From Candidatus Sulfomarinibacteraceae bacterium (GTDB lineage Bacteria > Acidobacteriota > Thermoanaerobaculia > Thermoanaerobaculales > Sulfomarinibacteraceae), in assembly GCA_963796455.1 (NCBI GenBank), contig CAWCLO010000004.1, positions 1,056,001-1,120,000 on the forward strand: a DNA stretch of 64,000 nt. Direction: 5' to 3'. A program made the position numbers and the translations under genes. Position 1 is the stretch's first letter. Each line of letters opens with the position of its first letter. Positions 2,228 to 52,125 of this stretch are shown in pieces. Under the pieces are notes generated by a model that did no database searches, had not been told where the DNA came from, and was given only the letters and a program-made list of their open reading frames with translations.

Positions 2228-2246
2228 ACGCCACTCCAATTCAATT

Positions 2247-2282
2247 GCAGGATACAAGATGCAGGATACAAGATGCGGGATT
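2247..2282 (+). repeat. Heptamer tandem array (CAGGATA/CAAGATG)
   Basis: caggata caagatg caggata caagatg cgggatt. Confidence 0.75.
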
Positions 2283-2304
2283 ACTCTTTTCCAAGAGTGT
2301 GTCT

Positions 2305-3072
2305 CGGACAGCGTTCAGGGACAGCGACCGCAATCAGTGTTCAGCGGCAGCGTTCAGTCATCAGCGATCAGCTGCAGGGACTGCGAACAGCGCTCACTTT
2401 GTCGGGTTCAACATCCGCCAAGTCATGGCACGGACCTGATCGAAGCCCTTCATCGCCTGACTGGCATCAATCCGGCTGATCGCCCCGGCGTGAGCGAGGA
2501 GTTCCAAGTGGCTGTCGACCTCTTTCGCCGAGGCGTAGGCGATTCTCCAGTGATTCAACCGGTCTCTACCGAATCGGCCGTGCCCTTCTGCCAGGTTCGC
2601 AGGGACCGAACTTGGCGACCGGATTACCTGATCGGCTATGGATTTCAGCGGAGCTGGAACCCTCATCACGAGCTTGATCGCGATTCCTGCTGCTTCGAGG
2701 GCTTTCGAGTGGGCAATGAGGTTGGTGGTCGTGGCGGCTTTGGACATGGTCACCTCCGGGTCGTTCATGCCCAGACCCACAAGCCGGTGTGGCGGTCGAT
2801 GTCAAGGATGCCCTGCACCCTGCCTGTCCTTGACATCGGCCGCCCACCGGCTACCCCTTCCTTTGAACGACCCGGAGGCGGCCACTTCGTCGCCTGTACT
2901 CCTGACCGCTGGCCGCTGTTCCCTGACGCTGTTCCCTGACGCTGTTGCCTGTCGCTGTTCTCTGTCGCTGTCCCTGGACGCTGTCCCTGCCGCTGTCCCT
3001 GGACGCTGTCCCTGCCGCTGTCCCTGGACGCTGTCCCTGAACGCTGTCCCTGCAGCTGTTCGCTGCCCCCTG
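2305..3072 (-). mobile_element. Putative repeat-flanked element carrying a four-helix-bundle gene
   Basis: Gene bracketed by inverted arrays: CAGGGACAGCG-type at 2305-2393 and (CGCTGTCCCTG-N1-2)n at about 2901-3072; related gene-less copies elsewhere in the window. Confidence 0.6.
2394..2747 (-). CDS. Four helix bundle protein (23S rRNA IVP / Avd-like family)
   Basis: DQVIRSPSSVPANLAEGHGR and IAYASAKEV match the family pattern Q..RA..S+..N+AEG..R...A.GS..E; GGAGG RBS; 117 aa. Confidence 0.88.
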   Translation of the reverse strand: MSKAATTTNLIAHSKALEAAGIAIKLVMRVPAPLKSIADQVIRSPSSVPANLAEGHGRFGRDRLNHWRIAYASAKEVDSHLELLAHAGAISRIDASQAMKGFDQVRAMTWRMLNPTK

Positions 3073-3159
3073 GATGAACCCCACGACCTGGACTGGGGTC
3101 GTGCAGAATCCACGATTCGGGAGGCACGATGATCGGACAGATTCGGTCCATTGGGGGCG

Positions 3160-3195
3160 AAAATCCGAAATTCGAAATCCGAAATCCGAAATCTG
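3160..3195 (+). repeat. Heptamer tandem array (AAATCCG)
   Basis: aaatccg aaattcg aaatccg aaatccg aaatctg. Confidence 0.8.
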
Positions 3196-15115: not shown

Positions 15116-15185
15116 CCGGACGATGCATCAAAGGGCCGGAGTGCCCAAGAAACCGAACCATTCCTGTCCAGGACATTGCCTCGTC

Positions 15186-15376
15186 CGGCGTTCAGGGACA
15201 GCGATCAGCGGCAGGGGCGGTGAACAGCCGCCGGATCATCGCACGAACCTGGTCAAAGAGGTTCATTGCGTCACGGCACCTGACAGTTGGCGCTGAACAC
15301 TGACAACTGTTCCCGGTCGCTGACAGCTGTCGCTGATCGCTGTTACCTGTCGCTGTCGCTGGACACTGTCCCTGCA
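15186..15376 (-). mobile_element. Internally deleted relative of the four-helix-bundle element
   Basis: Same inverted GACAGC arms; 15217-15269 encodes AMNLFDQVRAMIRRL vs AMKGFDQVRAMTWRM at the C-terminus of 2394-2747. Confidence 0.75.
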
Positions 15377-27660: not shown

Positions 27661-27960
27661 CAGCGACAGTGTCCAGCGGCAGCGGCAGAGAGCAGCGACA
27701 GGGGACAGTGATCAGTGTTCAGGGGCAGAGACCGGGGGCTGCAATCAGGTGCAGTGCCGGCGTGGTCACCTCAGGGGCGTTCAACAGAAGATACAGCCGC
27801 AGTGCTGTAGGCGTCTCGCCTGCACACCGTGCGGCCGAGACGGCCGCACCACAAAGACCGGAGCCCCGAGCAACTGAGTGCCGTTCACTGTCCCGGCCGC
27901 TGATCGCTGACGCTGGTGACTGAACGCTGCCGCTGCCGCTGGACACTGTCGCTGTCCCTG
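27661..27960. mobile_element. Gene-less MITE-like relative of the four-helix-bundle element, with an internal REP pair
   Basis: Perfect 28-bp IR 27661-27688/27927-27954; right arm shares CAGCGGCAGCGTTCAGTCA (inverted) with 2342-2360; REP hairpins 27806-27852. Confidence 0.75.
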
Positions 27961-27996
27961 TACGTTATCGAAACTCTGTCTTGGACTAGCGGTAAC

Positions 27997-51570: not shown

Positions 51571-51996
51571 CGGGCGACAGCGACAGCAAGCTGCAAACAG
51601 GGGTGTTCAAAGGATGGAGAAACCTGTGTGCGTATCCGAGCCGTGAAATATACCGACCCGGTACCTGAGGCTAACGTCCCTTTTCGGGGGCTCGCAGCCA
51701 GGACGACAGAATCTACCGCTGAGTGCGCATCCGAGCCGCGAAGCGGCGAAAGAGAATAGCCTGGGGCGTGAGCCCCAGGTTTCCAACCCCACACAAATAT
51801 GCGAGCCCTGAAGGGGCGACAGACTCAACTGCCGCCGCTTCGCGGCTGTGACAAAAAAATACCGACCCGGTAGCTGGGGCTGACGCCCCAGGCTAATATC
51901 TGGCGCCCCTACGGGGCTCACAAAAAGGACGACAGAACACCGCCCCTGATGACCGATCGCTGACGCTGCCTGCCGTTCACGGTCGCTGTCCCTGAT
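51571..51996. repeat. REP-like hairpin cluster nested inside GACAGC-type arms
   Basis: AGCCGCGAAGCGGCG, TAGCCTGGGGCGT and AGCCCTGAAGGGGCG each with an inverted partner (51733-51920); outer arms 51571-51590 and 51946-51996. Confidence 0.82.
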
Positions 51997-52125
51997 CGGC
52001 GTCCGAGACGCTTTCATTCAACAGAGTGTCCAGGAGACAGAATCGACGAATCAGGATGCGGCTCTGAAGGTGGGCCTTGGCCCACCTTCAGGCTGCCCGA
52101 AATCCTCTCTCGGAAAGGCGTGTCT

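Follow-up and report, generated by a model that had tools for sequence, protein, structure and literature searches.

A multicopy insertion cassette with IS4-family ends and a four-helix-bundle passenger gene in a Candidatus Sulfomarinibacteraceae genome

The gene-bearing repeat unit described here, found in a 64,000-nucleotide stretch of a Candidatus Sulfomarinibacteraceae genome (the window), is a mobile element. We consider it probable that the window holds a one-ended copy of a multicopy cassette devoid of transposase, in which a module of arms, hairpin and gene lies between IS4-family ends and is mobilised in trans. We class the element as a mobile insertion cassette whose novelty lies in the cargo and in the exchangeable ends; for its protein we can only infer a role. 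According to the mechanism that we favour, a cognate IS4 transposase likely cuts and pastes the cassette in trans, and insertion would go into short heptamer arrays. The transposase would have been supplied by an IS4 element since lost or unassembled, and the gene would be a passenger, dispensable for the movement of its own copy. Recombination between copies would shuffle the cassettes and may help to keep them intact, and a leader stem would hold translation low. The original prediction, made from the sequence alone, had presented the gene and its arms as a spreading unit. The spreading was borne out by 65 copies, but the arms proved to be internal: the unit terminates in inverted repeats of the IS4 family, accompanied by a target duplication of 9 bp.

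The gene of the window copy comprises 117 codons (ATG at 2745-2747, stop at 2394-2396, minus strand) and has phhA on one side and an ECF sigma gene on the other (Table 1). Its predicted membership of the TIGR02436 / 23S rRNA IVP family was confirmed, both profiles scoring above cut-off (TIGR02436, 54.3 bits against 24; PF05635, 52.1 bits against 33.8). PF05635 was the sole domain of the cassette gene and, as anticipated, no transposase is encoded within the unit. About ten units of 12-13 bp had been noted on one side, in complementary arms able to fold around the gene. Approximately 11 such units were found, spanning 2914-3052, with units complementary to them at 2306-2392, and the strand of the window copy had a folding energy of −380.9 kcal/mol (z = −8.1 relative to 20 shuffled sequences). 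Both heptamer arrays reported further out are present (2246-2281 and 3161-3193), but the latter does not belong to the element. The earlier left limit could not be upheld as the element edge, since the element extends further, to the terminal inverted repeat at 2282-2299. No end motif was detected for the second end of the window copy at up to four mismatches, and the upstream arm abuts DNA (3066-3165) that is single-copy in the genome. Two candidates for this end were rejected: an ISL3-type end at 3071-3080, which was a short match only, with no such end family among 20 genome matches, and the 3161-3193 array, which has a different unit, is separated by approximately 90 bp of single-copy DNA and shows no matching duplication. 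The window copy carried five non-synonymous private changes and one synonymous, the second-highest non-synonymous count among 58 copies, and its protein has Pro where the other 25 aligned proteins have Ala. It is probably immobile and decaying. The segment at 2228-2281 is devoid of the promoter-like and ribosome-binding motifs found upstream of phhA in relatives, and the cassette gene is oriented towards phhA, so that read-through could affect phhA.

Table 1. Features of the window copy, of derivative sites in the window and of unrelated family members in the same genome (positions in the window unless a contig is given)
Feature	Position	Strand	Basis or remark
Host heptamer array, ATnnnnn units, target class	2246..2281	.	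Target duplication survives as one copy, in the last 9 bp (2273-2281)
Terminal inverted repeat, IS4 left-end type	2282..2299	+	Differs from the 18-bp family motif at 4 positions; sole end remaining in the window copy
Downstream arm, a mosaic of 6-13-bp units that complement those of the upstream arm	2305..2393	-	
Four-helix-bundle gene TIGR02436 / PF05635 23S_rRNA_IVP, 117 aa	2394..2747	-	Profile searches
Structured leader	2747..2884	-	Outer stem 2747-2767 with 2864-2884 over GGAGG ribosome-binding site
Leader inner stem	2791-2808 with 2827-2844	-	Contains inverted TTGACA boxes
Upstream arm, about 11 units of 12-13 bp	2905..3067	-	Abuts unique DNA; second terminal repeat and subterminal segment absent
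Deletion derivative	15159..15376	-	Retains one terminal repeat (3 mismatches), the two arms and the final codons of the gene
Gene-less subfamily copy, palindrome replacing the gene	27661..27993	+	One terminal repeat (4 mismatches) adjoining a heptamer array
Decayed arms flanking an unrelated palindromic repeat	51571..52020	+	Loose member at best
Unrelated PF05635 genes, G000	C4:1278094, C1:983149, C9:2726, C10:733004		

The leader folds at −99.5 kcal/mol (z = −8.7). Two-sided changes were observed in 13 of its 29 consensus pairs across 28 chosen sequences from six genomes; these sequences are related, and the changes are therefore non-independent. The pairs of the TGTCAA/TTGACA core were invariant in the 28 sequences. 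Such a pattern would fit translational silencing combined with a sequence-specific site. Neither a sigma-70 promoter nor a terminator passed the scan, and Rfam returned only hairpin matches below threshold. At three loci of another genome, G006 (L145, L149 and L151), the outer leader stem was kept while the inner sequence differed, and the upstream arm contained a palindrome.

A genome-wide search for the protein and the arms, proposed as a check of the original prediction, showed both to be multicopy. In the own genome (G000; 5.0 Mb, 90.5% complete, 10 contigs), tblastn gave 59 full-length matches with 81-91% identity, distributed over 8 of the 10 contigs. The DNA-level search gave 104 matches, 65 of which were near full length; six of these had a net frameshift and one a stop, leaving 58 in frame, and in ten further copies one-base alignment gaps were balanced. 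At least three arm motifs per side were present in 56 of the 59 gene copies, compared with 7 of 2000 random window pairs. Complete copies measured 784-889 bp, contained the 117-aa gene and carried 17-bp terminal inverted repeats. Flank alignment placed the termini at CACT(CT/GC)TGTCCAA(G/A)ACA, with the arms lying internally. This end motif, at no more than two mismatches, matched the genome 223 times and the reversed genome not once. Inward-facing ends formed 59 pairs spanning 343-889 bp, and the full gene was enclosed in 23 of them. When the 59 gene copies were scanned with a relaxed end motif, the upstream end was found in 37, the downstream end in 41 and both in 29 (control, 0).

The 59 end pairs were flanked by a 9-bp direct repeat, exact in 20 and with at most one mismatch in 35, as compared to 1.85 and 7.2 upon shuffled pairing; there was no signal at 8 or 10 bp. 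In 24 of the 59 pairs, at least two of the nine positions differed. Because the target both starts and ends with AT, the duplication could conceivably be of 7 bp with one extra base at each end. Among non-consensus cases, the outer duplication positions matched in no more than 3 of 11 and 3 of 13, and the parent IS4 elements favour 9 bp over 7 bp. The sequence ATnnnnnAT lay immediately outside 149 of the 223 element ends. Heptamer arrays of the ATnnnnn class touched an element end in 80 of 187 cases and none in the remaining 107, and arrays similar to this target class were also present at the empty phhA site of two relatives (G013 and G018), both without an end motif. The arrays are thus disfavoured as excision footprints and are more likely to be targets.

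Arms had also been reported at three gene-less sites in the window, with non-autonomous derivatives as the suggested explanation. All three sites exist and gene-less derivatives were found, but the site at 51571-52020 is a loose member at best. Genome-wide, a palindrome replaced the gene in 20 of the 59 end pairs, nine of which had an exact duplication; the palindrome motif of this subfamily matched the genome 74 times, and these matches are not necessarily all cassettes. End pairs of about 310-390 bp were likewise found in G008, G020 and G021. The existence of gene-less copies with target duplications indicates that the protein is dispensable in cis.

The phhA-sigma interval served as the orthologous locus at which empty sites had been expected. 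Among 19 phhA loci of relatives, 17 retained the sigma gene, one was rearranged and one lay at a contig edge. In all 17 relatives holding both genes the cassette gene was absent, and the spacer measured 121-337 bp, compared to 1018 bp here; with approximately 75% DNA identity, these relatives are too distant to fix the insertion junction. Thus, the gene was neither single-copy nor syntenic, its copies were enriched for flanking arrays and empty sites did exist. Gene matches were present in 18 of 24 same-genus genomes (1-48 each; overall range 0-48) and, in another family, in 3 of the 16 genomes searched. In three metagenomes with near-identical phhA contigs (depth of about 3), the depth of the gene region reached 170-570, a value that sums all organisms; no joint spanning the insertion site was found in the metagenome contigs.

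A scan of GTDB with the end motif yielded 123 loci, with an IS4 transposase inward of the end in 22 and a four-helix-bundle gene in 9; only 56 of the 123 had 400 nt of room, and some overlap. Among the matches listed, the gene-bearing loci were from Sulfomarinibacteraceae. One IS4 element with cassette-type ends was identified in a same-genus genome, encoding a transposase with DUF4372 and DDE_Tnp_1 domains (NF033592). The 18 terminal bases of the cassette were identical to the 3' end of this element, and the left-end type of the cassette occurs 5' of IS4 transposases. The parent elements measured 1312-1518 bp, and an exact 9-bp duplication was seen in 5 of 10 two-ended elements with both flanks. 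The YREK motif was present in all 13 full-length transposases among the matches listed. IS4Sa is defined by CA------T ends, repeats of 8-10 bp and a length of 1150-1750 bp (PMC2266710, Table 1), and the parent elements match it in ends, repeat length, size and YREK motif, the features on which this assignment is based. The IS4-family ends and the 9-bp duplication point to ordinary mobilisation in trans by a DDE transposase and not to a new mechanism. Of the 25 genus genomes, a single one yielded the cognate transposase, which was not detected in the own genome (90.5% complete) or in 23 of the 24 others. Searches of the own genome gave no PF14294 and no PF01610 match, and tblastn with the genus IS4 protein returned nothing below E 4. 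The single PF01609 match in the own genome was rejected as a source, its flanks being without cassette ends. In G006, IS4 ends were present at 25 of 25 loci and the 9-bp duplication was exact at 13 of 25 (2.2 when shuffled). The copies in this genome are near-identical, which indicates recent spread, and the cognate transposase was not found there either.

The same arm-hairpin-gene module is carried between ends of a different type in sister species. In G008 and G014 these ends were GG(T/C)TCATCCGGAA, found upstream in 14 of 16 and 12 of 12 copies and downstream in 13 and 9, respectively; the 8-bp flank signal was weak, with exact repeats in 5 of 12 and 3 of 9, within the shuffled maximum. This type of end bounds ISL3 transposases at three of six genus loci examined. 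For most copies in G004 and G040, neither tested end type lay beside the gene, and the 40 matches in G040 had direct, not inverted, hexamer arrays on both sides. Five G040 loci (L172, L173, L177, L181 and L184) shared a common segment upstream of the array, possibly a third IS end. The IS4-ended genes formed one clade (support 100/98-99). They were nested among ISL3-ended genes in the tree, but not significantly so (AU p = 0.21). Each of the four unrelated PF05635 genes in the own genome (Table 1) was flanked by its own inverted arrays of 6-8-mers; short-repeat arms therefore seem to characterise the gene family and to predate the IS ends. At one locus in G017 (L241, 948-3186), heptamer arrays came after an ISL3 element and were succeeded by a four-helix-bundle module that terminates in a third ISL3-type end, a composite-like arrangement and a possible source of a cassette.

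The four-helix-bundle gene is under purifying selection. Pairwise dN/dS over the 58 copies was 0.142, and 0.076 in the core; shared alleles gave 0.15 and private changes 0.6-0.7 raw or 0.2-0.3 corrected. Private changes were non-synonymous or stop in 9 of 10 cases in truncated copies (seven copies) and in 30 of 47 in intact ones (Fisher p = 0.15). The copies are recombinant mosaics: all four gametes were observed in 45-58% of informative site pairs, and linkage decayed with distance (p = 0.001). The predicted structure of the window protein consists of four helices (pLDDT 92). The best structural matches were Xcc0516 (2GSC, TM 0.80), a homopentamer according to PMC4990558, and BT_0352 (2RLD). 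The predicted resemblance to the fold of Avd held (4DWL, TM 0.76, 9% identity, E 0.3), with Avd ranking behind these two; a family resemblance to Avd is stated in PMC10053308. No match to Avd was found at the sequence level. The own genome (90.5% complete) gave no RVT_1 match, and nothing ties the element to reverse transcription. Avd binds nucleic acid. The cassette protein most likely does so as well, plausibly binding its own structured leader.

Mobilisation in trans, taken alone, leaves purifying selection on a passenger unexplained. The favoured reading also has to accommodate the failure to find the cognate transposase in the own genome and most genus genomes, including the recently spread G006, as well as the G004 and G040 copies, most of which have neither tested end. 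An unlikely alternative is that the arm-leader-gene module is itself selfish. Its protein would then promote copying by working on the RNA or single-stranded DNA of the module, one conceivable route being recombination into MITEs already present or into short-repeat arrays, and IS ends would be vehicles acquired en route. This would agree with the occurrence of one module in IS4 ends (G000 and G006), in ISL3-type ends (G008 and G014) and in neither (G004 and G040), with the direct arrays of G040, with the arrays around the four unrelated PF05635 genes, with the dN/dS of shared alleles and with the Coxiella intervening sequence (IVS), which likewise has heptamer repeats before its gene (PMC4990558). 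However, gene-less copies with the same ends have exact target duplications, short end pairs occur in G008, G020 and G021, and the fold is without known catalytic role (2GSC, 2RLD). Moreover, the direction of end exchange lacks statistical support, and the segment shared by the five G040 copies may be an IS end. We hold as doubtful, though somewhat less so, the idea that such a vehicle-hopping module is the free-living form of ORF-bearing rRNA IVSs, its Avd-like protein binding the foldback nucleic acid of the module and promoting its copying. If true, the module would keep its gene intact while riding IS4 ends, ISL3 ends or bare short-repeat arrays, depending on the species.

The retention of intact genes might also reflect a benefit to the host, for instance as an RNA chaperone or defence factor, or addiction, host-level selection retaining intact copies after insertion. 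This reading addresses retention and is compatible with IS4 mobilisation; the 58 intact copies among 65, the dN/dS of private changes (0.2-0.7 depending on the correction) and the excess of non-synonymous or stop changes in truncated copies would all agree with it. That excess is non-significant, though, matches vary from 0 to 48 across the 24 same-genus genomes, selection per copy would be weak across approximately 60 redundant copies, and the ribosome-binding site is buried. We judge this reading to be very unlikely. Least probable of all, to the point of near-dismissal, is the reading in which a Y1 (RAYT-like) transposase recognises the arms as its palindromes and mobilises a REPIN-like foldback. 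Six Y1_Tnp matches were found in the own genome, and two Y1 genes are accompanied by palindromes similar to that of the gene-less subfamily. By eye, however, the cassette arms were absent from the flanks of the five Y1 genes shown, the terminal repeats correspond to IS4 ends, and the element is flanked by a 9-bp duplication. To our knowledge, HUH transposases do not make such target duplications.

Mobilisation in trans by an IS4 transposase, the reading preferred here, has a precedent in MIC231 of the IS231 subgroup (IS4 family), which comprises two IS inverted repeats and a passenger gene without a transposase, measures 0.7-3 kb and is moved in trans (PMC6199540). The cassette shares with mobile insertion cassettes the IS-type repeats on both sides (29 of 59 gene copies; one repeat in the window copy), a passenger gene, the lack of a transposase and, here, a 9-bp duplication. 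In contrast to MIC231, its ends are IS4Sa-like, about 65 gene-bearing copies occupy one chromosome set, a TIGR02436 gene is carried together with its arms and structured leader, the same cargo lies within ISL3-type ends in sister species, and movement in trans is a prediction. The end signature CA------T, the 9-bp duplication and the 18 identical terminal bases liken it to the IS4Sa subgroup (DUF4372 / NF033592). Unlike these elements, or any autonomous insertion sequence, it has no transposase of its own and encodes only PF05635, and its gene runs opposite to the transposase direction. Beyond the terminal repeat, blastn detected no similarity between the cassette and same-genus IS. The ORF-bearing 23S IVSs of Coxiella and Leptospira (S23p) have complementary arms around the gene, short tandem repeats beside it and a poorly accessible ribosome-binding site (PMC4990558). 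The cassette resembles them in protein family, gene-enclosing complementary arms, repeats near the gene and an occluded ribosome-binding site, but it lies outside rRNA and has IS ends; the one 23S gene of the own genome (C10:140644-143654, 3011 bp) holds no copy. Purifying selection also sets its gene apart from the Coxiella ORF, for which PMC4990558 describes decay. The likeness to Avd of diversity-generating retroelements is one of fold only; no reverse transcriptase was found beside the gene or in the genome, and Xcc0516 and BT_0352 are structurally closer. BrickBuilt of Porphyromonas gingivalis is an intergenic MITE with internal tandem units in one 23-nt array (PMC4596501); its abstract gives no protein-coding cargo and a single array, compared with the two inverted arms of the cassette. 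In contrast to REPIN/RAYT systems, the cassette arms were not seen in the five Y1 flanks shown, and likeness to the palindromes there is confined to the insert of the gene-less subfamily.

The original prediction had called the element undescribed. No account of this cassette was found in the literature searched, which included few subscription papers, but its class, the mobile insertion cassette, is known. In the text searched, MacGregor's TAACTGA paper does not mention the protein family. Proposals of long standing, cited in PMC4990558, hold that ORF-bearing rRNA IVSs are left over from transposition or are mobile and helped to move by their ORF. The present cassette places a gene of the IVS family in a transposed unit whose ends are defined. 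It comes with a candidate transposase, a preference for certain targets, gene-less copies as controls and a leader whose structure is conserved, and both the idea of IVS mobility and the function of the TIGR02436 family become open to direct test in a laboratory strain. The puzzle that it poses is a passenger dispensable in cis and yet under purifying selection across approximately 60 copies.

Several further repeats were observed. In G000, Y1 (RAYT-like) genes at C1:952748 and C4:210157 lie between palindromes like the insert of the gene-less subfamily, which might have arisen when IS4 ends came to enclose a REP-like unit. The window also contains a second dispersed repeat family with inverted arrays of 8-10-mers (540-1420), whose core had 22 genome matches of at least 400 nt, with 82-93% identity among the matches listed. 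Intergenic arrays of 6-9-mers, often in inverted pairs, were numerous throughout the window, and the IS4 and ISL3 elements of the genus sit within intergenic short-repeat arrays.
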